A DNA stretch of 64,000 bases from Minisyncoccota bacterium (GCA_018060945.1 JAGOVB010000001.1:5238-69237), one strand, 5' to 3'. Shown: positions 36,213-62,767, counted from the first letter of the stretch. The notes: generated by a model not told the origin, from the letters alone. A program made the numbers and translations.

Positions 36213-36275
36213 AGAAAAGATAAAGTATTTATCAAGAAAAAATCATCAGGAAACTGGTGATTTTTCTATTCCAAA

Positions 36276-36301
36276 AGTAATGCACGCAATTTTGCATTTT
36301 T
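36276..36301 (+). promoter_or_regulatory. Copy 2 of conserved hairpin motif AGTAATGCACGCAATTTTGCATTTTT
   Basis: Identical 25-26 nt to the copies at 33012 and 41137. Lies 64 nt after the 36212 stop and upstream of the scaffold-like gene. Confidence 0.6.
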
Positions 36302-41138: not shown

Positions 41139-41162
41139 TAATGCACGCAATTTTGCATTTTT
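41137..41162 (+). promoter_or_regulatory. Copy 3 of conserved hairpin motif AGTAATGCACGCAATTTTGCATTTTT
   Basis: Overlaps the TAG stop of the 39240 gene, 20 nt before the next gene. Confidence 0.6.
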
Positions 41163-45652: not shown

Positions 45653-47953
45653 ATGCTTACACGATTACAAATACAAGATAATATCGATGCCCTAGAAGAA
45701 CAGGGAGCAAGCCAGGATGAAATTCAGGAGTGGCTTGATAGTTTACCTAAACAATCCTCACAGGCTGAACCCGAACCTCCGAAAAAGGAAGGGATTTTTA
45801 AAAGGATAGGAAAGGCCATCATTTCAAGCGAGCTTAAATTTGGTAAAAGCATTGCTGATGCCATGCCTTCGTTTGTGCCAGGAAGTGCGGCGTGGACGAA
45901 CAAGCAAAATGAACAGATTATGGCAAACCAACACGCCATGATGGAAAACTTATTGGTCCAAAGAAAGAAGCTCAAGGCTGAGGGTAAAGATACCTCACGT
46001 ATCGATGCCGCAATTCAAGATATGCAGGAGCAAATGAGTAAGCCTGCAATCGATATTAATGAGACAAATGCTTCAGTAAACAAAACAGCTAAACAAGTCT
46101 TTGGTGAAGGTCTCGGTGTGGCAGCAGACATCCTCTCGGCTGGATCATATGGAAAAGCAGCTCAAGGCGCTCAGAGTGGCAAGTTACTTATTGCAGGCAA
46201 GGCTTCCGGAAAGGTTGCGAATGTTCTCGGTAAAGCAGGAATTCAAAGTACAGTCTCACCGGCTGCAGGTGCGCTTCCAAGCATCATCGGTGGAGGTACG
46301 AAGGCTCAGGCTGCGCTCAAAGGTGCATGGCAAGGTGCAAAACAAGGATTCACATCCGGTGCAGTCTTTGGCACTGCCCAAGGTGCCACTCGAGCAATGC
46401 AGGATAACAAAGAAAATATCGACATTGTATCTGATGCGATTACTGGCGGTGTGGTTGGAGGTGTTGCCGGTGGAGTAGTTGGTGGAGTTGTGGGAGGTAC
46501 AAGCGGATACATCAATCGTCGTAGGGAAATAAATAAATTGCTAAAGCCTGCCATGACACCGGATGAGACGATGAATTCTCTTCACAAAGAAATTGCTACT
46601 CATGCCGATGAGACTTCATTTAAGACATCTATTCAAAAAGGTGATCTTACAATCGATCAGGTCTATCAAAAGAATGGTGCTCTTAATCCTGAACTTGCGA
46701 AAGGTAGGATTGATGATATTGCAGCAAACCTCGATCTCAAGGTCCCAGGTGCTGGAGAAAAATATAGAACTCTCATTGATCCGAATAATACGAGCTTCGA
46801 CGAGCTTATTTCAAAAGCCGATGATGTTATCGATGAAAGCAGGAAGATTCCTGTTGAAGCTATTAAATACACAGTAAATGCTGAAGGCAAAAAAGTATTT
46901 GATACAAAAGCAAACGAGGCTCTCAAGGCAGGTATTGCAGATCAAGACATAGCCTTTATTAAAAACGCCTCTGCTGCAGATAAAAAAATATTTGATAAAG
47001 CGATGAAGGTTGCTGAGCAGGCATCAAAAGATAAGACCTACGCACGTCAGCCCGTTGAGCAAGCAGGTAAAGTTATCATTGACCAAGCAAACACCGTAGA
47101 AAATGCTCGCATGAAAGTCGGGTCCGAACTTGGTATTGTTCGCTCAAAACTCGCAGCTGTACCAGTTGATGTGACTGACACTGCACAAAACTTCTACGAT
47201 GATCTTGCAGATGCAGGTATCTCTGTTGGTGACGACGGTCTCGATTTCTCTAAGTCAAAATATGCGAATGTTCCTAAAATTCAGAAACTGGTCGAGAGTG
47301 TTCATCAGCGATTAGTGAGTGCAGGGGATACACCGAACGTAAAAACTGTAGATATGATTCGACAACAACTTGGTACTGAAGTTGATCTAGGAACTCTTGA
47401 AGGAAATCTCGATAAGAGTGCAAAGCGAATCTTGCAAAAAGTTTATGGAGGCTTGGGAGAAAATATCACCTACATTGATCCAAAATATGCAGAACTCTCA
47501 GATCAATATTCAAAGCTTACAAGTGCGATGGATTACTTCCAGAGAGCTCTCGGAAAAGACTTTGATGCAACCAATATTAATTCTGCGTTGAAAGCAGGTG
47601 AAGTCGGCCGACGAATGCTTGGTAACGCTGCATCTCGGCCGCTGGTTGTGGTTGAAAACATCCAAGACCTTGCACGAGCATATGGCTACAATCCCAATGT
47701 TGACTCTCGTAGTCAAATTCTCTTTGCAAGCTTCCTAGAAGACCTCTTTGGCACTACTCAATCCCAGAGTCTACAAAGTCAGATGACAAAGGGGGTTAAT
47801 GCAGCCGAAGAAGCCACAGGAGCTCTCACAGACGCTGCTACAGGTAACGCAAGCGGACTTATGTCCAAAGCACTCCGAAAAGGCATAAATCTGGTCCGAA
47901 ATATCACGCCAGAGCGACAAATTGAGGCTGTAAGGGCTCTTATTACCCCATAA
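45653..47953 (+). CDS. Tape-measure-like / internal virion protein (Gly-rich repeats)
   Basis: 766 aa, mostly alpha-helical and charged, with a GGVVGGVAGGVVGGVVGGTSG repeat. Lies just upstream of the lysis cassette. Confidence 0.45.
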   Translation: MLTRLQIQDNIDALEEQGASQDEIQEWLDSLPKQSSQAEPEPPKKEGIFKRIGKAIISSELKFGKSIADAMPSFVPGSAAWTNKQNEQIMANQHAMMENLLVQRKKLKAEGKDTSRIDAAIQDMQEQMSKPAIDINETNASVNKTAKQVFGEGLGVAADILSAGSYGKAAQGAQSGKLLIAGKASGKVANVLGKAGIQSTVSPAAGALPSIIGGGTKAQAALKGAWQGAKQGFTSGAVFGTAQGATRAMQDNKENIDIVSDAITGGVVGGVAGGVVGGVVGGTSGYINRRREINKLLKPAMTPDETMNSLHKEIATHADETSFKTSIQKGDLTIDQVYQKNGALNPELAKGRIDDIAANLDLKVPGAGEKYRTLIDPNNTSFDELISKADDVIDESRKIPVEAIKYTVNAEGKKVFDTKANEALKAGIADQDIAFIKNASAADKKIFDKAMKVAEQASKDKTYARQPVEQAGKVIIDQANTVENARMKVGSELGIVRSKLAAVPVDVTDTAQNFYDDLADAGISVGDDGLDFSKSKYANVPKIQKLVESVHQRLVSAGDTPNVKTVDMIRQQLGTEVDLGTLEGNLDKSAKRILQKVYGGLGENITYIDPKYAELSDQYSKLTSAMDYFQRALGKDFDATNINSALKAGEVGRRMLGNAASRPLVVVENIQDLARAYGYNPNVDSRSQILFASFLEDLFGTTQSQSLQSQMTKGVNAAEEATGALTDAATGNASGLMSKALRKGINLVRNITPERQIEAVRALITP

Positions 47954-47999
47954 AGTAATGCACCACTTTTTGCCAAAAAGTGGATTTAAGCTTGGGGTA
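47944..47999 (+). terminator. Nested stem-loop carrying a variant of the AGTAATGCA motif
   Basis: Outer stem TACCCCA/TGGGGTA, inner stem CCACTTTTT-GCC-AAAAAGTGG (9 bp). It overlaps the TMP stop and ends at the ATG of the next gene. Confidence 0.45.
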
Positions 48000-48283: not shown

Positions 48284-48889
48284 ATGAATATTCCATTTCA
48301 ACAGACTCCAAACTACGCAGTCGGTCCCACAAAGAAAACAGTGGTAGTCCTTCATTTCACACTCGGGGCGTACAGAGGAGCGGTAGAGTGGCTATCAAAT
48401 GCTAACCGGCCGAACCGATCATCAGCTCATTTCGTAATAGGTCGCAATCAAGGTGAGGCGGTGCAACTCGTAAAGGTTACTGACATCGCATGGCACGCCG
48501 GTGCGGTCAGTAATCCAAATGAACGTGCAAAGCGTGTCATGAGAAAGAATCTTGATGGCACATGGGTCAACCCAAATCAGTACACAATCGGGATCGAATT
48601 AGCTGCCGGATATGACGTGGATCAGGATGGTGCGGTCGAGCCAAACGAAAATGACATTACAGAGTGGCAGTATCAGCAGCTCACAGAACTCGTAAGGGCA
48701 TTTGCAAACAATCCAGACACTGCATTTGTCCTGGATGAGAAAAATATCATCATTCACGGAGATATAACTGACTACAAAGAGAAGCCTGAAATAGTTCGTA
48801 AAGAACTTCTCAAGAGATTGTTTCCGGTCCAGCCAAGTAACAAAGAGGCAATCAAATCTCAGATCATCAGCCTCTTGAATCAACTATGA
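48284..48889 (+). CDS. N-acetylmuramoyl-L-alanine amidase (endolysin, Amidase_2/PGRP type)
   Basis: SSAHFVIGRNQGEAVQLVKVTDIAWHAGAVSN and surrounding blocks match the amidase_2 zinc-amidase fold. Confidence 0.8.
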   Translation: MNIPFQQTPNYAVGPTKKTVVVLHFTLGAYRGAVEWLSNANRPNRSSAHFVIGRNQGEAVQLVKVTDIAWHAGAVSNPNERAKRVMRKNLDGTWVNPNQYTIGIELAAGYDVDQDGAVEPNENDITEWQYQQLTELVRAFANNPDTAFVLDEKNIIIHGDITDYKEKPEIVRKELLKRLFPVQPSNKEAIKSQIISLLNQL

Positions 48890-48983: not shown

Positions 48984-49163
48984 ATGAGTAAAATTTATAC
49001 ATCAGCAAGCAAGATCGTTTTCATTCTTATGGCAGTGGCAGTAGTTGTTGGAATGTTTTATGGAAAGGTGGATGCCAAAGATTTTATGATCCTGGCTTCA
49101 ATGGCATTTTCATTCTACTTCGCCAACAAAGGAGAAAATAACGAGCCTTTTGCAGGTAAATAG
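48984..49163 (+). CDS. Small two-TM protein (alternative holin candidate), not in supplied ORF track
   Basis: 59 aa MSKIYTSASKIVFILMAVAVVVGMFYGKVDAKDFMILASMAFSFYFANKGENNEPFAGK. ATG at 48984, TAG at 49161-49163. Two hydrophobic helices. Confidence 0.35.
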   Translation: MSKIYTSASKIVFILMAVAVVVGMFYGKVDAKDFMILASMAFSFYFANKGENNEPFAGK

Positions 49164-49256
49164 ATAGGAAGTATCGTATTCGATTTCTAAAGCTCTGTAT
49201 AAGGCCTATACGGGGCTTTAGAATACGTAATGGCCATGCTAAAATGGTTTTAACGG

Positions 49257-50330
49257 ATGAAAAAGACCCAATCTCAACTAAAACCCACATACAAAGTCAT
49301 TGATTTGTTTTCCGGATGTGGGGGACTTTCTTTTGGCTTTACAAAACAGAAATTTGATGTCATTGCAGGAATTGATAATTGGAAAGATGCACTCATCACT
49401 TTTGAGAAAAACCACAACGGGGCAAAATCTATTTTAATGGATCTCGGAAATTTTGATCCCGCTGATCTTAAAAAGAAATTAGGTAAAGTCGACATAATTG
49501 TTGGCGGCCCACCATGCCAAGGCTTCTCAATTTCTGGAAAAAGAAATCCTAGCGATCCACGTAACCAGCTTTATATTGGCTTTGTGAAAACAGTCGAGGT
49601 ATTCAAGCCGAAAGCTTTTGTTTTAGAAAATGTACCTAATCTCGTATCAATGAATGGGGGGAAAATAAAGGATGAAATCATAAAAGACTTTACTGCGCTA
49701 GGGTACGACGTTAAGTATAAGGTGATGCTCGCATCAGATTATGGCGTTCCTCAGAATCGGCGCCGAGTTGTTTTTGTTGGAATGCTCGGCAAGAATACCT
49801 TTGAATTTCCTGAGGGAGAGTTTAAGGCTGCGGATTTAAAAATAACTACTAGTCAGGCGATTTCTGATTTACCTGAACATTCAGTCGTAGATGGGTCAGA
49901 ACACAAACTAGTCTCTAAATCGATGTATCAGGCATTAATGCGAAAGGATAGTGGAAAAATCTTTAATCACGTATCCACAAATCACGATGATAAAACTGTA
50001 AAAATTATTTCACTTGTTCCCGATGGTGGAAATTTTAAGGATTTACCAAAGCACCTGAGGAAAACTCGTAATGTAAATATTGCCTGGACAAGGTATAATA
50101 GTTCAAGGCCTAGTTTTACAATTGATACAGGTCACAGGCACCATTTTCATTATAAATTCAATCGAGTGCCTACAGTTCGTGAATCTGCACGTCTCCAATC
50201 ATTTCCTGACGACTTCATATTCATGGGGTCAAAGACTAGTCAGTATAAACAAGTCGGAAATGCGGTCCCTCCGTTGATGGCTGAGAAGATCGCAAAGGCA
50301 TTGTCGGTCGCCTTAAATAAAAGACAATAA
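49257..50330 (+). CDS. DNA (cytosine-5)-methyltransferase (R-M cassette, MTase 1)
   Basis: Motif I LFSGCGGLSFGF, motif IV GGPPCQGFSISGKR, ENVPNL, and C-terminal QVGNAVPPLMA. Confidence 0.85.
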   Translation: MKKTQSQLKPTYKVIDLFSGCGGLSFGFTKQKFDVIAGIDNWKDALITFEKNHNGAKSILMDLGNFDPADLKKKLGKVDIIVGGPPCQGFSISGKRNPSDPRNQLYIGFVKTVEVFKPKAFVLENVPNLVSMNGGKIKDEIIKDFTALGYDVKYKVMLASDYGVPQNRRRVVFVGMLGKNTFEFPEGEFKAADLKITTSQAISDLPEHSVVDGSEHKLVSKSMYQALMRKDSGKIFNHVSTNHDDKTVKIISLVPDGGNFKDLPKHLRKTRNVNIAWTRYNSSRPSFTIDTGHRHHFHYKFNRVPTVRESARLQSFPDDFIFMGSKTSQYKQVGNAVPPLMAEKIAKALSVALNKRQ

Positions 50331-50334
50331 TTTT

Positions 50335-51756
50335 ATGTACGAAGTACCTGAAGAATATTTTTATAGAATCCATCACATACGACCACGTTTTAAGAATGAT
50401 GTTGAAAACGTGCTTTTTTACATGGCAACTGAAATTGCCAAACTCGATCCCGAAAAACAAGAAGCTTTCAAAGAAAAATTAAATAATACGATCAAGTTTT
50501 ATCCTGGCAACACTTCAAAAGAAGAAAAGACTATCAATAATTGGCGTACAGAAATTTCTGCTCTCTTTGGATTGATCGAATACGAGGGTGAGGTTTCAAA
50601 ACCAGGAAGAATGTCTTTGCTATTGTCAGAGACTCAAGACCTCATCGAGTTTTTTAGATATTTCTTGTTCTATTTTCAGTATCCAGGAGGGCATTTGAAG
50701 CCTGCTGAGACGTTAGAGTTTATTAAAGCAGGAATTAGATTGAAGCCAGCGAAATATCTCATGCAAGTAATGCTTGAAGGGAAAAAGCTTGTGGGCGACG
50801 AGGGAAAATTTGGTATTACCAAGGCAGAAGCAACCCATCTCATATTTAATGATCTTCGAGTAACAAGAGACCATCGACCAGCAAAGGAAACTGCTGAGAT
50901 TATTCTCGAGAATAGGAAAAATGATGTTCAGTATGATAATTCTGGTGATGTAATTCGTTACGCCGGAGATGTTTTGGATTATATGGAGCTTGCAGACCTA
51001 GTAAAGCTACGTCCGAACTATCAATATTATTTGAATACGATAAATCTTGAGACGATTCAAGCTTTTATTAATGATGGAAATTATTTTGAGCCATACGAAG
51101 CACTTTATGGAAAAGCTGATGTATCGATCGCTGATGTTGTAGCAACACAGCAAGCTTGGTTCCATTACGTAAACAACAAGCTCGATTCAAGTATATTTAA
51201 AGCCAATATTCTCTCTATTATCGAGGAAGCAGGAGCAACTACAGAGGATGCAGAAAAGAGCGCTATTATCAAAGAGGTTCTCGCACGAATCCAAGCTACT
51301 CGTGAAGGTCAGGCTATAAAAACCAAAGAGATTGGAGATATTGGCGAGACAATGGTGATTGAACATGAGAAAGCTCGTCTCACTATTTTGACTAGAGAGG
51401 ATTTGCTACACCTCATCAAGAAAATTCCTGAGACGTTTGCAGTTGGATATGACATCTCATCATATGAAGGTGAGGGTGACATTCGAAGATACATTGAAGT
51501 GAAAACTAGTATCAGCCGTGGGCGACTTGCTGCACAAAATTTCCACATGACTCCGAGTGAGTGGAGTGCGGCAAACTCTCTCCGTAAGACTTACTTCGTA
51601 TACCGTCTTATGATATCGACGAACGATGTCAGCCTTTTCTTGATCCAAGACCCAGTTGGTCAATATAAATCGGACTTGTTAGATATGATTCCTAGGGATG
51701 GGGCCGATATAAGGTATAATGAGAAGAGTGGAGTATGGGAAAAACTACTAGTATGA
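50335..51756 (+). CDS. Putative restriction endonuclease (C-terminal PD-(D/E)xK domain)
   Basis: Sandwiched between two C5-MTases with 4 nt and overlapping spacing. The C-terminus has GDIGETMVIEHEKARL...VGYDISSYEGEGDIRRYIEVKTS...FHMTPSEWSAA...YFVYRL, a D-x13-EVK nuclease motif (DUF3883-like). Confidence 0.5.
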   Translation: MYEVPEEYFYRIHHIRPRFKNDVENVLFYMATEIAKLDPEKQEAFKEKLNNTIKFYPGNTSKEEKTINNWRTEISALFGLIEYEGEVSKPGRMSLLLSETQDLIEFFRYFLFYFQYPGGHLKPAETLEFIKAGIRLKPAKYLMQVMLEGKKLVGDEGKFGITKAEATHLIFNDLRVTRDHRPAKETAEIILENRKNDVQYDNSGDVIRYAGDVLDYMELADLVKLRPNYQYYLNTINLETIQAFINDGNYFEPYEALYGKADVSIADVVATQQAWFHYVNNKLDSSIFKANILSIIEEAGATTEDAEKSAIIKEVLARIQATREGQAIKTKEIGDIGETMVIEHEKARLTILTREDLLHLIKKIPETFAVGYDISSYEGEGDIRRYIEVKTSISRGRLAAQNFHMTPSEWSAANSLRKTYFVYRLMISTNDVSLFLIQDPVGQYKSDLLDMIPRDGADIRYNEKSGVWEKLLV

Positions 51757-52796
51757 AAAACAATAAACCTTACAAAATAGTTTCCTTATTCAGTGGTTGC
51801 GGAGGGATGGATATGGGTGCAGAAGGCGGATTTACTTATTTAGGAAAAAAATACAAGAAGCATTCAACTGATTTGTTGTATGCAATGGATTTCGATAAGC
51901 CTATCTGCGAAATATATAACGCAAACTTTTCTCGTAAAATTGATGTAAAAGATATACGTGAATTAAAATCGGAAGACGTTCCCAATCACGATATCCTCAC
52001 CGGTGGCTTTCCGTGCCAATCGTTCTCAGTGAGTGCACAAAATCCAAAGAGACTTGGCTATAAGGATGCTCGAGGCAAGCTTTTCTTTGAAATGTGCAGA
52101 ATTTTAAGAGATAAACAACCTGCGGTTTTTGTAGGTGAGAACGTAAAGGGATTACTTTCAGCAAATAAGGGTGAGGCTTTTGCTCTGATCATAAAGGAAT
52201 TCGAAAAAGTTGGTTATCATGTCAAATATCAAATCTTGAATGCGTCCCACTTCGGAGTACCTCAGAAAAGAGAGCGTGTTTTCATTGTTGGATTTAGAGA
52301 TAAAAATACTTTTGATAAATTTGAATTCCCAAAGACAGTTACAGAAGGTAATCCGGTCCCACTTTCGGCCGTAGTTATTCCGGAGAAAGAGATAGAGGAG
52401 AAATACTACTTTAGTGAAAAGGCAGTAAAGGGAATGCAGGAAACTAAGAATGCAAAGACAATGAATAAAGGAAGGGCACAAGACCTAAGCGAGCCTTGCA
52501 ACACTGTTACTTCTCATCTTGCAAAAGTGAGTCTAAATAGCACTGATCCGGTCCTATTCTCAAAAGGGAAGTATAGAATGTTTACACCCAGAGAGGTGGC
52601 TCGAATTCAGTCATTTCCAGATACTTTTGTTCTGCCAGCATCACGTGGAGTAAATTATAAAGCGCTTGGTAATGCAGTCGCACCCGTAATGATGTGGTAT
52701 GTCACAAAAAAGATTATCGAGGCTTTAGAAAATAGTAATCAACCTACTACTTCTGTTGTCAGCATTTCGAGAAATCGTGAGCTAGTTACTAGTTAG
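51753..52796 (+). CDS. DNA (cytosine-5)-methyltransferase (R-M cassette, MTase 2)
   Basis: Motif I LFSGCGGMDMG, motif IV GGFPCQSFSVSAQ, ENVKGLL, and C-terminal GNAVAPVMM. ATGA overlap with the upstream gene. Confidence 0.85.
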   Translation: MKNNKPYKIVSLFSGCGGMDMGAEGGFTYLGKKYKKHSTDLLYAMDFDKPICEIYNANFSRKIDVKDIRELKSEDVPNHDILTGGFPCQSFSVSAQNPKRLGYKDARGKLFFEMCRILRDKQPAVFVGENVKGLLSANKGEAFALIIKEFEKVGYHVKYQILNASHFGVPQKRERVFIVGFRDKNTFDKFEFPKTVTEGNPVPLSAVVIPEKEIEEKYYFSEKAVKGMQETKNAKTMNKGRAQDLSEPCNTVTSHLAKVSLNSTDPVLFSKGKYRMFTPREVARIQSFPDTFVLPASRGVNYKALGNAVAPVMMWYVTKKIIEALENSNQPTTSVVSISRNRELVTS

Positions 52797-52955
52797 ACCA
52801 AGCTAAATTACAAATCTATAAACCTGATTATTCGGGCATTTTTCCTATGTTGCTGCTGAGCTTGGAGATTTGGTTATATTGTGGTATGCTGTTGTTCGTA
52901 CCTTTCCCAAGTATTTAGTGCTAGAATTATAAATATGCTCTAGCCGCAACGTAAA

Positions 52956-53474
52956 ATGACCACCCAATCTTTTTTCGCACAACCAATTTTTTTTATAATA
53001 TTAGTGCTACTTCTTTCAGTTGTAATAAATACTTTTTTTCTTCGACTCCTCATTTCTGCAATTGTGAGAAAAATAGGTGATGTACACACCAAGCTTCGGG
53101 AAGAAATTAAGTTTTCTTTGCAGCCAATTGGAGATATTCCAATGGGAGTAGAGGAAATTACCGAACTTGCAACAGAGATTTGGAGAATTGAGCAGAGACT
53201 CTCAAAAACGGCAGATAAAATATCTGACGTACACAAAAAAGGACTTGAGAATTCCGTTCAACGCCTCAAAAGATATCTACAGAAGTTCGATGTTGAAATT
53301 CAGGATTATACTGGCCAAAAATATAATGATGGCTTTAATTTTGATATCTTATCGCGCGAACAAGACCCTTCTCTCGAGCATCCCATAATAAAAGAGACAG
53401 TCGAACCAACAATCACCTGTAGGGGAAGGATAGTAAAGAAGGCAAAGGTGATTCTAGCCTCAAACCAAGTATAA
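52956..53474 (+). CDS. Membrane-anchored GrpE-like protein (putative nucleotide-exchange factor)
   Basis: N-terminal TM helix and a long helical coiled coil. The C-terminal small beta domain RLKRYLQKFDVEIQDYTGQKYNDGFNFDILS...TVEPTITCRGRIVKKAKVIL aligns with the GrpE C-terminus (GxxFDPxxH...GYKLxDRVLRPAxVxV). Assignment is tentative. Confidence 0.4.
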   Translation: MTTQSFFAQPIFFIILVLLLSVVINTFFLRLLISAIVRKIGDVHTKLREEIKFSLQPIGDIPMGVEEITELATEIWRIEQRLSKTADKISDVHKKGLENSVQRLKRYLQKFDVEIQDYTGQKYNDGFNFDILSREQDPSLEHPIIKETVEPTITCRGRIVKKAKVILASNQV

Positions 53475-53480
53475 AATTTT

Positions 53481-55973
53481 ATGGCCACCCGACACATACA
53501 AATTGGAATCGATTTAGGAACCACCAACTCGGAGGTGGCTATTAACAATGGAAGCTCTGTTGAGATAATCAAGAACGGATTCAATGATGAATATACACCT
53601 TCTGTATTTGGAATCGATAAATCCAAGAATAAAATCGTCGGTAAAAAGGCATATGAGAGACTTTTTAAGTATGCCTCAAAAGAGGAACTGGCTAATAATA
53701 AGGCTGAGGTAAAGAGAATAATGGGTACAGCCGAAACAGTTAGATTTGAGCGAACAGATGAAGATTTAAAGCCAGAAGAAATCTCAGCTGAAATCTTAAA
53801 ATCTCTAAAAGAAGACATTTTAAGAAAATACCCTGAATTCAACACAACCTCAGCTGTTATTACTATCCCGGCACATTTTTCGGTAGTTCAAGCTGAGGCA
53901 ACTAAACGAGCTGGTAATATTTCAGGTTTTGATTACGTTGTGCTTTTGCAAGAACCAATCGCCGCAGCAATTGGTTATGGATTCATGAATGCCAAAAACG
54001 AAAATTGGCTTGTTTATGATCTTGGGGGTGGTACTTTTGACGTAGCTCTTATCTCCGCAAAAGACGGACATCTTACTGTGGTAGCACAAAACGGCGATAA
54101 TTTTCTAGGTGGTAAGGATTTCGATAAATTAATTATTGAAAAAGTCTTAATTCCAAAAATTAAAGAGGAATTTAACTGTCCAGACATCAAAGAAGATAAG
54201 GTTATTTTCTCAAAACTAAAAAATCTTGCAGAAGTTGCAAAAATTGAGCTCACCTCATACGACAAGACAAATATCCAGATTGAAAATATTGGCGAGGATG
54301 CCGATGGGAAGGAAATCTACTTATCGATAGACTTTTCTCGAAGTGAATTTGAAAAGTTAATCAAACCTTTGGTAGACAGGACTATTAAACTCTCCCAAGA
54401 AACAATCAAGGAATCGGGAATAAAACAAACCTCGGTTGATAAAATCATCCTTGTTGGTGGTCCCACATTAATACCATATGTGAAAAATAGACTTGAGAGC
54501 GATTTGAAAATACAAGTGGATGCATCTGTTGATCCTTTAACCATTGTTGCTCGAGGTGCTTGTATTTATGGCGTAAGTCAGCAAGTTCCTGATGAATTTG
54601 CAAAGAAAGTGGTCCAGAATAAAGACGCAATGAATTTAAAGCTTCACTTCGACTCACTGTCCTCTGATGTTGAGACAACAGTGAGCGGAATTGTTGAGGA
54701 GTTGCGTGACAGTGAGGAAGATCACTATCTCCAAATTCAAGGAGATTCAGGTACATATAGCGGTCCCAAAGTTAAAATCAAAAATGGGAAATTTTTTGAT
54801 ACTATTACCCTAGATGCAAATCGAACGAATTTATTTTGGATATACCTTTTTGATGCACAGGGTAATGCGGTTCCTATAGAACCCGATTCATTCACCATTA
54901 TTCATGGACTCTCGATTTCTGGAGCTCCTATACCTCATGCGATTGGTGTTGGGGTGGTTAAAAAAGATTTTAAAACTGGCTTAGCAACAGAAATTTTTGA
55001 TAAATACTTTGCAAAAAACAGTGTACTTCCATTAAAAGAAACTCGAACATTTAAGACTCTAAGAAAGCTCAAGAAAGGTGATAAAGAAAATGTCTTACCT
55101 ATCAATGTATACGAGGGCGAATCTGATAGACAAGATCGAAATCAAAGAGTTTGCAGCCTGAAAATTTCAGGTGAAAAGATACCATATGATTTGCCTGAGG
55201 GCACTCCAATCGAAATTACAATCGAGATAAACGAATCTCGAGAGGTCAGCGTAAATGCATATATCGAATCAATCGATCTTTCTCTTGATGCGCGAGCGTC
55301 AATCCATGCAGAAGACCTGAATGTGGAGCAGATGAAAGAAGAGTTGGGGTCACAACGTGCTCGAATAGATAATGCTAAAGAAAATTGTTCTCCTGAGGAG
55401 CGAAAAAGTCTCGAGCATACTTATGATTCCGTAGACAATAGTCTCGACCGCGCAGAAGATGACCAAGATGAAAAGAGGAAGGCTAACAAGCAGTTGAAGG
55501 ACTTGAAATTACAGTTAGATATGATCGAAAGGGATAAGGAAATGCCTCAGTTGATTCGTGAGTTTAAGGAAGGCGTTCAGAAAGCAGCAGAGGCAATAAA
55601 GGAAGTGGGGAACAAAGAAGAATTGAATCAACACAAAGAACTACTCGACTCTCTTAAAACTGAAGGGGAAATGGCTATTGAAGACGAGGACAAACATCTT
55701 CTTATTCGTGTAAACGAACAGATTGATGACTTGAAACATAAGATCATTTTCTCAAATCCTGCTGCTTGGGCATATTTCTTTGAAAAGATTGTCAAAGATA
55801 ACAAAAAATTCATTAGTGACAAAGAAGCCGAGTATTATATCAATAAAGGTCGTCGAGCTATTGAAATGGGGGATACTGAGGAGCTCAAGCGATGTGTGAA
55901 AGGCCTGATGCTTCTCCTGCCTCCTGAGGAACAGGCGATGCTGCAAAATACGATGTCTGGAATAACATATTAA
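53481..55973 (+). CDS. Divergent Hsp70-family chaperone (DnaK paralogue) with inter-domain insertion
   Basis: NBD motifs IGIDLGTTNSEVAI, DLGGGTFDVALIS, ILVGGPTLIPYV. SBD-beta-like region NVYEGESDRQDRNQRVCSLKISGEKIPYDLPEGTPIEITIEINESREVSVNA. A long charged helical lid. About 115 extra aa between NBD and SBD. 830 aa. Confidence 0.8.
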   Translation: MATRHIQIGIDLGTTNSEVAINNGSSVEIIKNGFNDEYTPSVFGIDKSKNKIVGKKAYERLFKYASKEELANNKAEVKRIMGTAETVRFERTDEDLKPEEISAEILKSLKEDILRKYPEFNTTSAVITIPAHFSVVQAEATKRAGNISGFDYVVLLQEPIAAAIGYGFMNAKNENWLVYDLGGGTFDVALISAKDGHLTVVAQNGDNFLGGKDFDKLIIEKVLIPKIKEEFNCPDIKEDKVIFSKLKNLAEVAKIELTSYDKTNIQIENIGEDADGKEIYLSIDFSRSEFEKLIKPLVDRTIKLSQETIKESGIKQTSVDKIILVGGPTLIPYVKNRLESDLKIQVDASVDPLTIVARGACIYGVSQQVPDEFAKKVVQNKDAMNLKLHFDSLSSDVETTVSGIVEELRDSEEDHYLQIQGDSGTYSGPKVKIKNGKFFDTITLDANRTNLFWIYLFDAQGNAVPIEPDSFTIIHGLSISGAPIPHAIGVGVVKKDFKTGLATEIFDKYFAKNSVLPLKETRTFKTLRKLKKGDKENVLPINVYEGESDRQDRNQRVCSLKISGEKIPYDLPEGTPIEITIEINESREVSVNAYIESIDLSLDARASIHAEDLNVEQMKEELGSQRARIDNAKENCSPEERKSLEHTYDSVDNSLDRAEDDQDEKRKANKQLKDLKLQLDMIERDKEMPQLIREFKEGVQKAAEAIKEVGNKEELNQHKELLDSLKTEGEMAIEDEDKHLLIRVNEQIDDLKHKIIFSNPAAWAYFFEKIVKDNKKFISDKEAEYYINKGRRAIEMGDTEELKRCVKGLMLLLPPEEQAMLQNTMSGITY

Positions 55974-55977
55974 TTTT

Positions 55978-57441
55978 ATGAGCCTTTTAAAAGATAATTC
56001 ATACCACATACTAGGACTAGACACTTCTGCGAACCAAAAAGAAGTATCTAAACGGTCAAAAGAAATACTGACTCGCCTAAAAATCGATGATGTACCTCAA
56101 TATGATCTCGATCTGAATCTTTTTAAGGATTTTAGAAATGAGCACTCTGTAAAAGAGGCAGTTTCGAATCTTTCGACTCCAAAAAAACACATCAAGGAGT
56201 ATTTTTTCTGGTTTCAAATAGCGGATACTGTAGATGAGCAAGCAGTAGGTATCTTTAGAAGTGGTCACTATGAGGATGCTACGAGAGTGTGGGAACATCA
56301 TTCTTCTGAAGACAACGCAAAGTCCCTTTTGTATAAAAAAAATCTTGCCATACTTTATAGCTTACTGCTCTATAAGTCTAAGAATCAAGACTATTTAAAG
56401 AAATCAGTTGCAATATGGGGTGAGTTAGTCAATTCACCTAAATTCTGGAGCTCTTTCTCCAAGGTGCACAGGCTTCATGATGAACTCGGAGCCGAGCAAG
56501 ACGTTATAGATGATTTCAAAAAGCATGTTTCTGGTTATATTTCTGATATTTACACTGATCTATCAAACTTCCATAAGGATAACGAATTCATTGCCGCTTT
56601 CTCTAAAAACTTTGGATTGAAGGGTGAAAAGATTGAGACTGATGTGCTGAATCCAATATATAGAATCATAAACGATGCAGTAGAAGATTTGGAAAAGCTA
56701 AAAGTAAGTGATGACGGCATTTTGGACAAACATGAGTCTGACGAAATAAAACGTCTGATTTCGGTAATTCAAGCTGAGCTCAATAAACTTATTGATCTCG
56801 GACTCTATGAAGAAAGCAAAATAAAAGTGGTCAGAGATAGGGCTGCAGCTACACTTAGAAGGTTAAGCATCGAAATCAACAACAATTTGAACGATACAGG
56901 AATCGCACTTGGTCTTGCTAAGATTGCGGAAAAAATATCTGGCACAGAGAGTTTTAAAAGCAAGGTTCAGCAAGATAAGAAAACACTGCAAGACAATCAC
57001 GACTACAAAAATAAAGAGGAGAAACAGAAGGCTGTTGTTGACCCAATAATTGCTGATTTCCATGCAGGAAATACTGAGCGAGCAATACAAACAATTAATG
57101 GCTACATATACAATGACAGTACGGATAAGGACTTAAAAGAAACCCTTACTGGAATCAAAGCTGCTATTGAAGAAAGAATTGTAAAGAATGGAAAGCCTGT
57201 GTCGAAGGCTCCAGCGATGCAGAGTATTAATGGTTTCGGTACTACCATCTACGGCGATACTGTTTATGCCATAGCTTTGTTTGTCCCTCTTTTCGCAATT
57301 GGGAGATACAAGGTTACGAATCATGGAGGCAATAGCTACTCATTCCAAGGTAAGCTGGAGCTTAAAAAATGGCAGAAGATTTATAACTGGGTGGTCCCAG
57401 GGATAATTATTCTTTGGATACTAATATCTTATAACAGCTAA
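55978..57441 (+). CDS. J-domain-like protein lacking HPD, with C-terminal TM anchor
   Basis: N-terminal SYHILGLDTSANQKEVSKRSKEILTRL...EAVSNLSTPKKHIKEYF follows the J-domain helix II/III pattern, but the HPD position reads IDD. Helical repeat middle region. Two C-terminal hydrophobic helices. Confidence 0.45.
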   Translation: MSLLKDNSYHILGLDTSANQKEVSKRSKEILTRLKIDDVPQYDLDLNLFKDFRNEHSVKEAVSNLSTPKKHIKEYFFWFQIADTVDEQAVGIFRSGHYEDATRVWEHHSSEDNAKSLLYKKNLAILYSLLLYKSKNQDYLKKSVAIWGELVNSPKFWSSFSKVHRLHDELGAEQDVIDDFKKHVSGYISDIYTDLSNFHKDNEFIAAFSKNFGLKGEKIETDVLNPIYRIINDAVEDLEKLKVSDDGILDKHESDEIKRLISVIQAELNKLIDLGLYEESKIKVVRDRAAATLRRLSIEINNNLNDTGIALGLAKIAEKISGTESFKSKVQQDKKTLQDNHDYKNKEEKQKAVVDPIIADFHAGNTERAIQTINGYIYNDSTDKDLKETLTGIKAAIEERIVKNGKPVSKAPAMQSINGFGTTIYGDTVYAIALFVPLFAIGRYKVTNHGGNSYSFQGKLELKKWQKIYNWVVPGIIILWILISYNS

Positions 57442-57442
57442 T

Positions 57443-58045
57443 ATGAGCGACCATCTTAATTTTGATACAGACTTCCTCAATAGCACTAAGGCTACCCCAA
57501 AGCCTAAGGTTAATTCACCTAAACAATCAGGTGGATCGGGAGGTGGCAATGATACAGTAAAAAAATGGGCGTGGGGAATAGGAATTGTGCTTGGTATAAT
57601 TGTACTTTCCGCCTTGTTTGATGATTCTAGTTCAACATCAACATATACACCACCAGCTACACCAGCGACAACACAAGCATCCGGAGGAGATGACAATACT
57701 TTTACTTACAATGGTCAAACCTTCAGGTGTTCTGATTACCATTACGACAAAGCAATTGCGTTACGACCGAATGCTACTCTTAGCTCTCAACTTGATACTG
57801 AAGCAGCAGGATTCGAAACTAGATTGGCGGCGTTGAAAAGAGAAAAAGATCGAATAGATGACATGTATGTCGATGAATATGATCAGGATTCCTTGGATGA
57901 GTATAATGCGGCTGTTGATAGCTTTAATTATAATAACAATAAATATAAGAGTGATGTTTCCTTATTCGAAGTGAGAGCTGAAGCATTCGACCGTCAAATT
58001 GATACCTACAACAACTACTTGGATGCTAATTGCAGACCACAATAA
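57443..58045 (+). CDS. Single-pass membrane protein with Ser/Thr/Pro-rich linker
   Basis: TM segment WAWGIGIVLGIIVLSALF followed by a roughly 140 aa extracytoplasmic domain. Confidence 0.35.
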   Translation: MSDHLNFDTDFLNSTKATPKPKVNSPKQSGGSGGGNDTVKKWAWGIGIVLGIIVLSALFDDSSSTSTYTPPATPATTQASGGDDNTFTYNGQTFRCSDYHYDKAIALRPNATLSSQLDTEAAGFETRLAALKREKDRIDDMYVDEYDQDSLDEYNAAVDSFNYNNNKYKSDVSLFEVRAEAFDRQIDTYNNYLDANCRPQ

Positions 58046-58046
58046 T

Positions 58047-59108
58047 ATGGCGATCCAGACTAAACCAATTCTATATAATGGCTTTGAGGTCAAAGACGGC
58101 GTAAAAATTAAAAGCCGTATTGATAAAGCTTTTTTCACTGAAATATACGAACTCTCCAATGATTCGTTTTTTTACCTATTCTTGAATCTTAATCCAAATG
58201 AGGTGATTGATAGGCGAGGGAAATATGAACTCATTCGAGTAACTGTGGCAGCGAAGGAATGGATCGGTGTAATGGTAAAAAATCACTCAAATCAACATCT
58301 ATCGCTGGTAATTGAGGAACTCACTACGCTCAGAGGGTTTGATAACATTGCTGGAATGAAGGAACTCAAACAGACCCTTATTGCTGAAGTCATTAACCCC
58401 CTAAGAGACCCTGAAAAGTTCAAAAAGTTTAAAGTCTCAATTCCCAACGGAATTCTTTTGTATGGTCCCCCTGGATGCGGAAAAACTTTCATTGTCCGAA
58501 AGCTTTCAGAAGAACTTGGATATAACTTCTTTGAGGTTAAGCATTCTGATCTAGCAACTCCTTTCATTCATGGTTCAGTAGGAAATATTGGAAAAGTTTT
58601 TGAAATGGCCAAGATGAATGCCCCTGCGATTGTATTTTTCGATGAAATTAGTGGTCTGGTCCCAGATCGTCAAAATCTCCACGATTCTTCTTCACATAAA
58701 GAGGAAGAAATAAATGAATTCCTTATTCAGCTAAACGATGCTGCTGATAACAATATTTTGGTTGTGGGTGCTACTAACTATATAAACAGAATCGATCAAG
58801 CAATTCTTAGACCTGGACGTATGGATAAAAAAATTCATGTCCCCCCACCAGACAAGGAAGCAAGGCATGAATTATTTAAACTTGGTCTCTCCGGCCGACC
58901 ACATGACAAAGACATTGACTTCGATAAGCTAACAGAGCTTACAGATGGGTATAGCGCTGCAGATATTATAGAGGGTATTGTTGAAGGATCAGCCAGACTT
59001 GCTGCCAATTTAGATAAGCAATCTATTGATCAGGAGTTACTAGAGCAGGAAATTAAAAAGGTAAAGCCAGTTGAGGAAGAACGACCAAAAATCGGCTTTT
59101 CAATTTAA
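58047..59108 (+). CDS. AAA+ ATPase (classic clade)
   Basis: Walker A GPPGCGKT, Walker B IVFFDEI, second region of homology ILVVGATNYINRIDQAILRPGRMDKKIHV. A roughly 130 aa N-terminal domain of unknown function. Start taken at the ATG at 58047, just after the upstream stop. Confidence 0.8.
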   Translation: MAIQTKPILYNGFEVKDGVKIKSRIDKAFFTEIYELSNDSFFYLFLNLNPNEVIDRRGKYELIRVTVAAKEWIGVMVKNHSNQHLSLVIEELTTLRGFDNIAGMKELKQTLIAEVINPLRDPEKFKKFKVSIPNGILLYGPPGCGKTFIVRKLSEELGYNFFEVKHSDLATPFIHGSVGNIGKVFEMAKMNAPAIVFFDEISGLVPDRQNLHDSSSHKEEEINEFLIQLNDAADNNILVVGATNYINRIDQAILRPGRMDKKIHVPPPDKEARHELFKLGLSGRPHDKDIDFDKLTELTDGYSAADIIEGIVEGSARLAANLDKQSIDQELLEQEIKKVKPVEEERPKIGFSI

Positions 59109-59110
59109 AT

Positions 59111-59431
59111 ATGATTACTCCTGAACAAAAAAACTACAGAATAATTTTCTCCAAGATAGCAGGTGTACTGCTGTTAATTGCCATGATTCCAATTTGGCCT
59201 TATTTCTTCTATCAATTCCTTAAATTGGTCGTGTTCGGTGCTGCGATTCATTCTGTATACCTATACCACAAGGAAAAGAATACAAAGTGGGTAGTAATCA
59301 TGGTCATAATTGCCATAATATTTAATCCTATTAATCCTCTCTATTTCGGCCATTTCCTTTGGTCGATAGTAGATTTTATAGTTGCAGCGATATTCTTTAA
59401 TTCCGCAAAGAAGCACGCTGTTCATAGTTAA
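59111..59431 (+). CDS. Small polytopic membrane protein
   Basis: 106 aa with three predicted TM helices. Confidence 0.3.
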   Translation: MITPEQKNYRIIFSKIAGVLLLIAMIPIWPYFFYQFLKLVVFGAAIHSVYLYHKEKNTKWVVIMVIIAIIFNPINPLYFGHFLWSIVDFIVAAIFFNSAKKHAVHS

Positions 59432-59447: not shown

Positions 59448-60314
59448 ATGAAATATTTTGAATGGCTGAAGACGAATAAACATATCCGAAGAATATTTCT
59501 ATCGGGAGTAATAGCTATTTCTTTTGTCGTTTTAAGTTTTATTAGTCTAGCACTCTATGAAGCCGTAATTTATGGCGATACGGATTCCGAGGGAGAAATG
59601 ATTGCTGGAAATGATTTGTCATGCAATGTGCTAGGTATAAATCTTCATGGAGACCTTTATACCTATATTCCAGAAAGTAACGACGATGAGCTTCTAAGCG
59701 ATAAAGATGTCGTGGCAAGCGAAGAAATCATGAACCTTATTGATGAAGCAGAAGCAGATGAAGAAATTAGGGCAATCATCGTAGAGGTAGATTCAGCTGG
59801 AGGATACCCTGTAGCAGGTGAAGAAATCGCCGCAGCAATAAAAGCTGCGACAAAGCCTGTTATTGCTTTCATTCGACAAAGCGGAACTTCAGCATCATAT
59901 TGGGCAATTACTACAGCAGATCATATATTTGCATCTAAAAACTCAGATGTCGGAAGCATTGGAGTGACCATATCTTATGTAGACAATGTCTCAAAAAATG
60001 AAAAGGAAGGTCTTGCGTATGTTCAATTAAGCTCAGGTAAGTACAAAGATGCTGGTAGTCCGGATAAGCCACTCACTGAAGAAGAAAAGGGGCTAATCGT
60101 GAGAGATTTGAAAATCATTCATGAAAACTTTATCAAGGAGGTTTCAGCTAATAGGAATATTCCAATAGAAAAGGTTAGAGCCGTTGCCGATGGATCATCA
60201 GTACTTGGCGAAAGAGCAAAGGAGCTTGGCTTGATTGACTCAATCGGTGGGTACCCAGAAGTCAAAAAGTACGTAGAGGAAAAAATAGGTGAAAAAGTAG
60301 ATGTTTGCTGGTAA
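59448..60314 (+). CDS. Signal peptide peptidase SppA-like (S49 family, ClpP/crotonase fold)
   Basis: N-terminal TM. IRAIIVEVDSAGGYPVAGEEIAAAIKAATKPVIAFIRQSGTSASYWAITTADHIF...GSIGV matches the 36K-type SppA core. Confidence 0.6.
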   Translation: MKYFEWLKTNKHIRRIFLSGVIAISFVVLSFISLALYEAVIYGDTDSEGEMIAGNDLSCNVLGINLHGDLYTYIPESNDDELLSDKDVVASEEIMNLIDEAEADEEIRAIIVEVDSAGGYPVAGEEIAAAIKAATKPVIAFIRQSGTSASYWAITTADHIFASKNSDVGSIGVTISYVDNVSKNEKEGLAYVQLSSGKYKDAGSPDKPLTEEEKGLIVRDLKIIHENFIKEVSANRNIPIEKVRAVADGSSVLGERAKELGLIDSIGGYPEVKKYVEEKIGEKVDVCW

Positions 60315-60322
60315 TCAAAATC

Positions 60323-61228
60323 ATGGAAGAAAAAGTAAAACTATATCGCATACAAGCGGAAAAATTACGTTCCTATCCTGAGTTTTTAAAGAATTTTAAT
60401 GCAACTTTAAACTGGGAAGAAGGGAAGGGGTTGTCACTAACTCATACTGGCTTTGATGATAAAACCATTACCGCTGTATTTATGGCAGCAAGGCCTTTTT
60501 TGATGGACGAAAGGATTAATTTCGAGCAACTGTGTCAGGATGTTATCGCCTCAGAACAGAATGATGTAATTAAAAAGGATGCTATTGACGCTCTCGAAGC
60601 CTGGAATAAACTCATGCATCCGGATAAAGAGAGTCCCTTGATGCAAGTAAACGAAAAGGGGATTACCTATCTACAAAACTTTAGATATTGGATGAATGAA
60701 GAACATTTCCATCCCGAAGAATATAAAATTGATGGGTCCCGAGGACTTTCATCTATCAAGCAATCAGAAGCACTCGAATGGTTTTCAAAGCCATTTATGG
60801 TCGACTTTTTACAGAAGATCGTTCAACTTATCCTATGGCTCGATATTCGAGTCGTCTCAAATATTCACCAAGAACCTATAAAGATAATAAAAAAGTATCG
60901 CAATCCTACAAAAGAAGCTGCAGATTTAAAAGAAGCTCTGGAAAAGAAAGGGGTGCGAGTTCTGGTTGAGTTACACGATGGGCATAAACATATAGACCTA
61001 GCAATTCCTAAGGCGAGGATAAATGTGGAGGTAGATGGGATTCAACACCTCACTAACCCAGAACAGATTGTAGCTGATCTTAGTAGGGGATTTTACTCAC
61101 ATAAAAATGGCTTTGACACTATGCACATTCCGAATGAGATGATTCGCTTACACCTCAAGGAAATTTCAGCTGCTTTGGCTGAAGCGTCTAAAATAAGAGA
61201 GCGTAAAATACATCTTCATTTAGAATAA
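60323..61228 (+). CDS. Protein with C-terminal DUF559-like (PD-(D/E)xK) domain
   Basis: C-terminus RVLVELHDGHKHIDLAIPKARINVEVDGIQH follows the DUF559 / Vsr-like pattern (D-x10-EVDG-x2-H). The N-terminal 200 aa are unknown. Confidence 0.45.
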   Translation: MEEKVKLYRIQAEKLRSYPEFLKNFNATLNWEEGKGLSLTHTGFDDKTITAVFMAARPFLMDERINFEQLCQDVIASEQNDVIKKDAIDALEAWNKLMHPDKESPLMQVNEKGITYLQNFRYWMNEEHFHPEEYKIDGSRGLSSIKQSEALEWFSKPFMVDFLQKIVQLILWLDIRVVSNIHQEPIKIIKKYRNPTKEAADLKEALEKKGVRVLVELHDGHKHIDLAIPKARINVEVDGIQHLTNPEQIVADLSRGFYSHKNGFDTMHIPNEMIRLHLKEISAALAEASKIRERKIHLHLE

Positions 61229-62078: not shown

Positions 62079-62150
62079 GCCTCCGTAAGTTAATGGATAG
62101 ACTCACTCGATTCTAACGAGGAAGTAGGGGTTCGATTCCTCTCGGGGGCA
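62079..62150 (+). tRNA. tRNA-Arg (anticodon TCT)
   Basis: Acceptor GCCTCCG/CGGGGGC, D-stem AGTT/GACT, anticodon stem CTCG/CGAG with loop ATTCTAA, T-arm AGGGG-TTCGATT-CCTCT, discriminator A. Confidence 0.75.
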
Positions 62151-62296
62151 CAAAGCTCTCAAAATTGATATAATAGCATTATGAGTGGTGAGAGTTGGTA
62201 TTCTTCGGCTCACGCTGAGGACACCGCTGTTTAATAAGTCCGACTCGTTCGGTTAAAAGCAGTGGTGGCTTACGGGTCTACCAAGAGTGCTACTCA

Positions 62297-62330: not shown

Positions 62331-62767
62331 TATATAAAATCAATTTGAGAAACTTCGTCTTTAAAACTTTCTATTTCTTTAAGAACTTTATTATGGATAC
62401 CTACTGCCTTATCGTAATTTTCTTTATTAATCGAATCGGGGTTAGCCAAGGACTCTTTCACTGAATTTATAATTTCAAGTTCCTCGGGACTGACAAAAGT
62501 TGCCAGAGAGACATAGGAATTTGCAAGAACCATGATCTGGTCCTTAATCTTTTTCTTTATTTCCTCTTTTGAGCCTGACAGTGTAGAGGAATCATTAAGC
62601 GATACAGCAAAAGGCACGTGCCCAAATAGGAGTGCTTTGTTGGTATTAAATTTTGGGGGTTCGTAAATTGGATTCTTCATAGGGTTCATATGATACACAA
62701 AAAGCCCACCACATGAGTAGAGGCCGAAGCCCCTCATACCAGTTTCCCGGTATGGCCTGACGGACAC
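62330..62767 (-). CDS. Hypothetical protein (minus strand)
   Basis: 145 aa ORF ending at the bidirectional terminator. No motif recognised. Confidence 0.35.
   Translation of the reverse strand: MSVRPYRETGMRGFGLYSCGGLFVYHMNPMKNPIYEPPKFNTNKALLFGHVPFAVSLNDSSTLSGSKEEIKKKIKDQIMVLANSYVSLATFVSPEELEIINSVKESLANPDSINKENYDKAVGIHNKVLKEIESFKDEVSQIDFI

Follow-up and report, generated by a model that had tools for sequence, protein, structure and literature searches.

The DNA considered here is a stretch of 64,000 nucleotides (nt) from a Minisyncoccota bacterium (GCA_018060945.1 JAGOVB010000001.1:5238-69237), which as a whole is referred to as the window and in which positions are counted from the first letter. 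Between 49,257 and 52,796 it holds three genes in series on the plus strand, i.e. a gene for a C5-cytosine DNA methyltransferase (M1), a gene for a predicted restriction endonuclease (R) and a gene for a second C5-cytosine DNA methyltransferase (M2). These genes are best read as a complete restriction-modification (R-M) cassette of the BpuJI family, ordered M1-R-M2 and located in the accessory part of a Pacebacteria chromosomal insertion that contains phage genes, a reading to which we assign a probability of roughly 0.85.

Gene organisation of the cassette

The open reading frames (ORFs) lie exactly as had been claimed in the original prediction, i.e. as three back-to-back genes with one 4-nt and one overlapping junction, and encode 357, 473 and (as listed for 51735-52796) 353 amino acids (aa). 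The TAA stop codon of M1 (50328-50330) is followed by TTTT and then by the ATG of R at 50335, which leaves a spacer of 4 nt, and R and M2 overlap by either 22 nt or 4 nt (ATGA), depending on whether M2 starts from the ATG at 51735 or from that at 51753. When this junction was translated in ten close homologues, the ATG at 51735 turned out to be missing in most of them, and the ATGA start was kept in the loci L006, L007, L014, L009, L012 and L020. Since only the ATGA start is conserved in the close homologues, M2 most likely spans 51753-52796 (347 aa). With only 4 nt between M1 and R and an ATGA overlap between R and M2, the three genes would form one translationally coupled operon.

Methyltransferases M1 and M2

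That both outer genes encode C5-methyltransferases (C5-MTases) with the full motif set was borne out. M1 matches PF00145 end to end (1-322/324, E=3e-79), as well as TIGR00675 dcm (230 bits) and the PADLOC class MTase_II (E=6e-114), and M2 also matches PF00145 end to end (E=2e-76) and TIGR00675 (296 bits), with M.HhaI aligning over the whole length of M2 (E=5e-43). Motifs I (FSGCGG), IV (PCQ), VI (ENV), VIII (QxRxR) and X (GNAV) are present in both proteins (FSGCGG18, PCQ86, ENV124, QNRRR166 and GNAV334 in M1; FSGCGG13, PCQ87, ENV129, QKRER171 and GNAV306 in M2). The two proteins share only 31% identity, and R is flanked by two separate, full-length genes for 5-methylcytosine (m5C) methyltransferases.

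The central nuclease R

The N-terminal recognition domain of R (residues 2-276, encoded by 50338-51162) matches the full BpuJI_N model (PF11564, 1-278/278, E=1.2e-96), and residues 337-432 (51343-51630) correspond to a PD-(D/E)xK domain of the AHJR (archaeal Holliday-junction-resolvase-like)/NOV_C type (PF13020 NOV_C, E=9e-12). PADLOC classes the protein as a Type II restriction enzyme (REase_II, E=4e-32), and its only sequence matches in the PDB are the recognition-domain chains of BpuJI (2vla and 5hlt, E=6e-19). In an AlphaFold model built from 28 homologues, the N-terminal 280 residues are confident (pLDDT ~80) and superimpose on 5hnf/2vla with a TM score of 0.80-0.82 and a root-mean-square deviation of 3.5-3.8 Å, at 24-26% identity.

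The catalytic residues, D373 (51451-51453), E388 (51496-51498) and K390 (51502-51504), form the motif YD373...E388VK390 and are all invariant in the alignment of the 28 homologues. The C-terminal part of the model, which is of low confidence, has the predicted order alpha-beta-beta-beta-alpha-beta; D373 falls on strand one and E388/K390 on strand two, which is the placement expected of a PD-(D/E)xK core. The original prediction had the 473-aa protein ending in a nuclease-fold motif; this motif (YDISSYEGEGDIRRYIEVKTS, residues 372-392) is indeed there, but it lies within the C-terminal domain and not at the very end. The nuclease fold itself, on whose presence that prediction hinged, is backed by the NOV_C/AHJR-type profile match and by an invariant triad equivalent to that of BpuJI. 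R is accordingly named here as a predicted BpuJI-family, Type IIS-like restriction endonuclease. An identical protein is listed in NCBI as 'DUF3883 domain-containing protein [Candidatus Pacebacteria bacterium]', a name that gives only the domain, and a confident annotation as a BpuJI-family restriction endonuclease is possible.

Comparison with BpuJI and other known systems

BpuJI is a Type IIS enzyme of Bacillus pumilus RFL1458 that recognises 5'-CCCGT, and its gene (bpuJIR) is flanked by bpuJIM1 and bpuJIM2 (Sukackaite et al. 2007, PMC1874659). Two methyltransferases, one for each strand of the asymmetric site, are typical of Type IIS systems (PMC1874659). Biochemically, BpuJI contacts its site through the N-terminal domain, as a monomer. 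Its C-terminal domain forms dimers and is auto-inhibited as long as no cognate DNA has been bound. Activity is highest when two sites are bridged, the positions of cleavage vary and lie close to the site, and an end-directed nuclease activity is present as well. Its recognition domain is represented by the structures 2vla, 5hlt, 5hnf and 5hnh.

In both systems the nuclease gene lies between two m5C methyltransferase genes, and R too combines a double winged-helix recognition domain at its N-terminus (BpuJI_N) with an AHJR-like PD-(D/E)xK domain at its C-terminus, whose YD...EVK motif (YD373...E388VK390) corresponds to YD348...E367VK369 of BpuJI. The latter residues are essential, as alanine mutants no longer cleave and still bind specifically (PMC1874659). 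N67, which like Q208 is needed for DNA binding by BpuJI (PMC9240713), is kept in R as N69 (TLDNHRTEI in BpuJI, TINNWRTEI in R). The two systems differ in the spacing between the catalytic D and E (15 residues in R vs 19 in BpuJI) and in their setting, the present cassette being found in a bacterium of the Candidate Phyla Radiation (CPR) and within a phage-containing insertion. The original prediction had taken two C5-MTases around a PD-(D/E)xK nuclease as a sign of a Type IIS-like R-M system, and this interpretation holds, with a full-length BpuJI-family R in the same layout as BpuJI. The BpuJI cluster in REBASE already had 73 members in 2008 (PMC2441816), and the system described here is an ordinary member of a widespread, known family and not a new variant.

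FokI and Nt.BspD6I, of which the latter is the next structural match to the R model after BpuJI, likewise combine a winged-helix recognition module with a separate PD-(D/E)xK cleavage domain that must dimerise. However, these modular Type IIS enzymes have no detectable sequence relationship with R and belong to another catalytic-domain family, and FokI relies on N6-methyladenine (m6A) methylation by a fused methyltransferase. A resemblance of FokI to the D1/D2 subdomains of BpuJI has been described (PMC9240713).

In its genomic setting, the cassette resembles other R-M systems and methyltransferases of phages and prophages, in that temperate elements bring methylation or R-M genes along as accessory cargo. 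Examples are BsuMI in the prophage-3 region of B. subtilis (with two C5-MTases) and EcoP1I on phage P1, both of which belong to enzyme families other than that of this cassette. Prophages of Pacebacteria (~44 kb) with C5-MTase genes, as well as R-M systems on genomic islands of Patescibacteria, have been published (PMC12455944). Those prophages were reported with methyltransferases only, annotated as 'AMGs', whereas a complete R-M unit is present here.

Distribution of the cassette

More than 2,300 homologues of R were found, of which the closest (60-84% identity) are mostly in metagenome-assembled genomes (MAGs) of Patescibacteria. In a scan with one genome per species, relatives of R occurred in 263 genomes, spanning Patescibacteria, Bacteroidales, Clostridia, Treponema, Alteromonas, cyanobacteria and a Bathyarchaeota MAG, and the closest copies of the cassette were in MAGs of Azambacteria, Saccharibacteria, Uhrbacteria and Pacebacteria. 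The flanks were analysed for the 80 best R loci, 78 of which had sufficient upstream flank, and the order M1(+)-R(+)-M2(+) was found in 78/78 loci with enough flank. The gene upstream of R was always best matched by M1 of the window (50-81% identity, 78/78 loci) and the gene downstream always by M2 (46-77% identity, 80/80 loci), with R itself being 46-81% identical to the other cassette copies. The three-gene arrangement is far beyond chance, as the same order recurs in 78/78 independent genomes.

A gene for the mismatch-repair protein Vsr lies near the cassette, mostly right after M2, in 13 of the 80 other copies. On the complete 1.17-Mb Patescibacteria chromosome CP129476.1, R is found between two C5-MTase genes that are followed by a Vsr gene, as is also the case in another MAG; M1 of CP129476.1 carries an N-terminal helix-turn-helix (HTH)/MerR fusion, in contrast to M1 of the window, which does not. 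At the DNA level, similarity to the closest copies is ~70% and limited to 49293-52731, a segment that corresponds to the three genes as one block and does not include the leader or the trailer. The cassette is thus an old, coherent and horizontally mobile three-gene unit that is spread across many phyla, and among the close relatives it is commonest in Patescibacteria. The cassette had been called notable, which is overstated, since it is common in Patescibacteria chromosomes and elsewhere and Pacebacteria prophages with C5-MTases are already in the literature (PMC12455944).

Carriage of the cassette on predicted viral sequences has precedent, though it is rare, because three IMG/VR contigs hold an M1-R-M2 unit (44-49% R identity; alignment-based scan). 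A scan of IMG/VR with the single R sequence gave no match, and a tblastn search of INPHARED with R gave only a partial, NOV_C-like match in a Vibrio phage.

The 92-nt leader, which showed no DNA similarity to other cassette copies, contains a strong 17-bp hairpin (49185-49223; folding energy -33 kcal/mol, z=-4.9) that includes one ACGGG, i.e. a CCCGT site (49210-49214), and a promoter-like site at 49217-49245 (TTTAGA, a 17-nt spacer, TAAAAT and an upstream TG), for which the scan counts were not above chance. A terminator-like hairpin 27 nt past the M2 stop codon (CCTGATTATTCGGG CATTTTTCCT) was found by pattern scan only and is weak evidence, and the trailer region of M2 folds no better than shuffled sequence (z=-0.06).

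Where a cassette family is this widespread in Patescibacteria, protection against it would be useful, and it could be argued that R is inactive and that the two methyltransferases serve only as anti-restriction 'orphan' methylases, which shield phage progeny from this R-M family. Orphan C5-MTases are frequent in phages. The element itself already has one at another position (Table 1), and the Pacebacteria prophages with C5-MTases (PMC12455944) would fit such a role. The state of the R gene, however, speaks for an intact system: the protein is full length (473 aa vs 469-482 aa in homologues), it agrees with the family alignment at every invariant column, of which there are more than 120 (D373, E388, K390 and the residues of the DNA-binding helices among them), and the tight, coupled gene junctions are intact as well. 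We consider an inactive R quite improbable, and the preferred reading remains that of a complete R-M cassette.

Genomic setting: host chromosome and phage-containing insertion

The first 27,822 nt of the window are ordinary host chromosome, with genes for tRNA-Ala, FtsX/ABC, G6PD, YchF, LeuRS and AlaRS as well as infA, rpsM, rpsK, rpsD, rpoA, rplQ, rplM and rpsI. A host within the CPR (Patescibacteria), as had been surmised from the start, is supported by the NCBI names of identical proteins (identical R and Hsp70-family proteins are both named 'Candidatus Pacebacteria bacterium') and by the CPR lineages of the closest homologues.

A metagenomic contig, L094, is 99.885% identical to the window over 17415-27822 and diverges exactly at the stop codon of rpsI, and its downstream sequence (small ORFs, grpE and a dnaK-like gene) is absent from the whole window, up to 64000. 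It follows that a strain-specific insertion begins directly after rpsI, at 27823, and continues past 64000, with a length of at least 36 kb. The insertion starts with a podovirus-like phage module (Table 1), whose packaging, structural and lysis genes are contiguous with the host chromosome and missing from the near-identical L094.

Table 1. Features of the window, with positions counted from its first letter and the basis of each assignment
Feature	Position	Strand	Basis
LeuRS ORF (host)	10010-12997	+	phrog_1198 for the inserted segment
Protein with ATP-cone and Mrr_cat restriction-endonuclease domains (host)	17161-18015	+	
Left junction of the insertion and phage core	27823-49164	+	L094 divergence, phage annotations
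Rep_O-like gene	28163-28702	+	phage annotation
Third C5-MTase	28734-29981	+	PF00145
Large terminase subunit (terminase L)	31306-33006	+	phage annotation
SU10-like portal	33060-35069	+	phage annotation
SU10-like adaptor	38605-39234	+	phage annotation
LysM protein, 766-aa protein, holin-like gene	in phage core	+	phage annotation
Amidase	48284-48889	+	phage annotation
59-aa membrane protein	48985-49164	+	phage annotation
Leader, non-coding	49165-49256	+	left synteny breakpoint, hairpin, promoter-like site
M1, C5-cytosine DNA methyltransferase, 357 aa	49257-50330	+	PF00145, TIGR00675, PADLOC MTase_II, motifs
R, predicted BpuJI-family Type IIS-like restriction endonuclease, 473 aa	50335-51756	+	PF11564, PF13020, PADLOC REase_II, PDB 2vla/5hlt
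M2, C5-cytosine DNA methyltransferase, 347 aa (353 aa from ATG 51735)	51753-52796	+	PF00145, TIGR00675, M.HhaI
Terminator-like hairpin and T-rich tail	52823-52845	+	pattern scan only
Conserved Hsp70/AAA+ operon	52956-59431	+	related loci L098-L101
307-aa protein	60305-61228	+	sub-threshold matches DUF559, MTES_1575
tRNA-Arg(TCT)	62079-62151		
LOOT RNA	62719-62836	-	Rfam RF03000

As the source is a metagenome-assembled contig, in which the identity with L094 stops abruptly at 27822, the linkage between host and phage could in principle be an artefact of assembly or binning, with phage and cassette derived from a free phage or another organism, and it would fit with this that no integrase or att site was found in the window. 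The break, however, falls exactly at a gene end, past the rpsI stop codon and a terminator-like hairpin, and not in a repeat; the junction was found to share no repeat with the rest of the window, and gene strand is the same and AT/GC skew similar across the junction. Furthermore, the closest homologues of the cassette and of the Hsp70 operon downstream of it are both in Patescibacteria. Such an artefact has very little probability, and an insertion into the host chromosome is retained as the explanation.

The position of the cassette within the insertion follows from comparison with a related viral contig from IMG/VR (L005), in which genes of the phage core recur in unchanged order, namely those for the 766-aa protein (77% identity), the holin-like protein, the amidase and the membrane protein of 59 aa. 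At the DNA level the two sequences are ~90% identical up to the stop codon of the gene for the latter (49162-49164), after which L005 carries different cargo (13573-16295), namely a 69-aa Zn-ribbon-like protein and an 822-aa protein. Since synteny with L005 ends at 49164 and is followed by different cargo, the start of the cassette coincides exactly with a position of variable cargo that follows the lysis genes. Judged from its sequence only, the 822-aa protein of L005 resembles either a superfamily-2 helicase or a 'Res'-like protein of Type III restriction, and the genes in the L005 slot may represent a different defence gene in the same slot. A scan of metagenomes for more relatives of the phage returned only short contigs that end before the cargo slot.

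The same breakpoint could also mean that the phage ends at about 49164 and that the cassette, together with the Hsp70/AAA+ operon that follows it, is a separate defence or mobile island, which would make the whole a composite insertion. Besides the end of L005 synteny, this is in line with the base composition, as GC falls from 0.442 in the phage core to 0.390 in the cassette (0.38-0.39 when the Hsp70 module is included, and 0.38-0.40 in the region downstream of the cassette; the host part is at 0.411), and with the independent mobility of the Hsp70 module, which in other CPR contigs is found beside serine recombinases, Thoeris TIR genes and integrases; moreover, other copies of the R-M cassette never adjoin genes of this phage. 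On the other hand, L005 has other cargo at the same position and no host housekeeping gene, which fits a phage cargo slot, and the L094 sequence after rpsI does not resume before 64000, so that the whole stretch behaves as one strain-specific block. No recombinase or repeat was found between phage core and cassette. In lambda-like genomes, cargo between the lysis/tail genes and att/int is in the classic moron position, which also counts against a separate island. A separate island is therefore considered the less likely reading, and an accessory region that is phage cargo is favoured.

Several observations weigh against the reading of a BpuJI-family cassette carried as phage cargo. With respect to its location, an integrase was absent from those ORFs of the window that were scanned or read, no att or junction repeat of at least 12 nt was found between the left junction and 52.7-64 kb, and the right boundary of the insertion was not found before 64000 (where the L094 sequence has not resumed); these boundary searches were confined to the 64-kb window, ~6 kb of the 70,003-bp source contig lying outside it. 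To these are added the departure of the cassette GC from that of the phage core and the fact that 0/80 other genomic copies of the cassette adjoin genes of this phage. With respect to its family, the recognition domain of R is only 24-26% identical to that of BpuJI, Q208 of BpuJI aligns with an Arg that is invariant in the R subfamily, and the C-terminal nuclease domain was modelled at low confidence (pLDDT 35-60) and gave no independent fold match, because of which the assignment of the nuclease fold rests on sequence profiles and motif conservation. Finally, a Vsr gene was sought in the window and no significant match was obtained (best E=0.65, inside the ORF at 60305-61228). Of the earlier description of the cassette as prophage-borne, the part that stands is that it lies inside a phage-containing, strain-specific insertion; it does so in a compositionally distinct region, and the integrase, att site and right boundary that a prophage would bring along were not found in the window.

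Recognition sequence

The specificity of BpuJI cannot be transferred to R, because the recognition domains are only 24-26% identical, and since Q208 of BpuJI is replaced by an invariant Arg in the R subfamily, the specificity of R may differ from CCCGT. Site avoidance was considered as evidence for CCCGT specificity and rejected: the window has 21 CCCGT sites vs 49 expected from dinucleotide shuffles, but this apparent depletion vanishes under a maximal-order Markov model (ratio 0.85, rank 130/512), and CCCGT is not depleted in 358 kb of flanks of cassette-bearing genomes either (ratio 1.04). In the insertion (27823-64000), CCCGC/GCGGG is depleted, with 1 observed vs 9.9 expected, and CCCGC is also depleted in the flanks of cassette-bearing CPR genomes (L006-L085; 34 observed vs 63.6 expected, z=-4.5, rank 3/512), as are other common Type IIS words (GCAGC, CCATC and CTCAG). 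CCCGC is a lead only, as the comparison covers cassette-bearing genomes alone, and its depletion may reflect common CCCGC-specific R-M activity in these lineages. A link between FauI and BpuJI was not found in the literature.

Neighbouring genes and other features of the window

Directly downstream of the cassette lies a conserved operon for a GrpE-like protein (172 aa), an Hsp70-family protein (830 aa), proteins of 487 and 200 aa, an AAA+ ATPase (369 aa) and a 106-aa membrane protein, the last of which occupies the place of a DUF6804 gene in the related loci L100/L101. The 830-aa protein is DnaK-like only in its nucleotide-binding domain and stays far below the cut-offs for DnaK/HscA; more than 100 homologues of ~830-840 aa were found (57-86% identity), and those named by organism are nearly all from Patescibacteria. 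The 487-aa protein has a J-domain-like N-terminus (YHILGL...) with no HPD motif, and the ATPase is IetA/FtsH-like. The gene order recurs beside large serine recombinases, a Thoeris TIR gene, an N6/N4 methyltransferase, bAvd and a phage integrase. The operon looks like an uncharacterised, mobile and Hsp70-centred module of the conflict or defence type, and it is probably more novel than the R-M cassette. Menshen was considered as an identification and proved unrelated. A relation to the published Hsp70-containing GTPase conflict systems was rejected as well, the GTPase-centric systems having no counterpart here. Further downstream, the 307-aa protein has weak, sub-threshold C-terminal matches (E ~1e-3) to DUF559 and MTES_1575, which are Vsr-fold domains; its ORF gave the only tblastn match to the Vsr protein of other cassette copies, which is the non-significant one mentioned above. 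Near the right end of the window, a tRNA-Arg(TCT) gene lies close to a full-length match to the LOOT RNA (82 bits vs a gathering score of 46.4).

Within the phage core, the gene for the third C5-MTase (415 aa, PF00145 E=3e-89) lies a short distance before the terminase genes. Motif I of this protein is followed by an insertion of ~60 aa that is basic and of low complexity. The protein shares only ~30% identity with M1 and M2 and is probably an orphan anti-restriction methylase of the phage. A 22-nt motif, AAAGTAATGCACGCAATTTTGC, occurs four times between the phage late genes (33010-33031, 36274-36295, 41135-41156 and 47952-47973) and extends to ~47 nt in three of the four copies, which makes it a candidate late promoter or regulatory element of the phage.

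In the host part of the window, the LeuRS ORF has a NUDIX-hydrolase-like segment (residues ~433-584, phrog_1198 E=1e-13) with the NUDIX box GGIEEGESATDAATREIIEETG in its translation, and a NUDIX domain inside LeuRS seems unusual. If the host protein with the ATP-cone and Mrr_cat domains restricts methylated DNA, it would need to tolerate the m5C introduced by the three methyltransferases of the insertion.

Proposed mechanism and significance

From the characterised BpuJI and the membership of its family, we infer the following mechanism for the cassette. M1 and M2, as two divergent methyltransferases that depend on S-adenosylmethionine (SAM), would each methylate cytosines in one strand of a short asymmetric sequence, and R would bind this sequence in its unmethylated form, as a monomer and through its N-terminal double winged-helix domain. 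Dimerisation would take place through the C-terminal PD-(D/E)xK domain, in which D373, E388 and K390 would act together with Mg2+, and, as for BpuJI, R would be expected to be most active when bridging two sites and to cleave near but outside the site.

Three roles may follow for the element. In a lysogen, the cassette would restrict incoming unmethylated DNA (e.g. that of superinfecting phages), it would stabilise the element through post-segregational killing, and it would methylate the DNA of the element itself, so that other CPR hosts with the same cassette would not restrict its progeny. A more far-reaching version, which we regard as tentative and on balance unlikely, is that R belongs to a CPR-centred subfamily with a site other than CCCGT, for which word depletion hints at CCCGC as the one candidate, that the whole cassette combines addiction and superinfection exclusion with pre-methylation of progeny, and that together with the Hsp70/AAA+ operon it forms a two-module defence island carried by the phage, in a group of organisms of which most have no CRISPR.

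These results add little to R-M biology as such, since the cassette is common and its enzyme family, gene architecture and mechanism included, was already known in 2007. To our knowledge, CPR bacteria rarely have CRISPR and the interplay with their phages is poorly documented. The ecological value is modest, and lies in the clean example that a Pacebacteria genome gives of a complete Type IIS-like R-M unit within the accessory part of an insertion with phage genes. Should R recognise a site other than CCCGT, a new Type IIS specificity could be gained from the subfamily.

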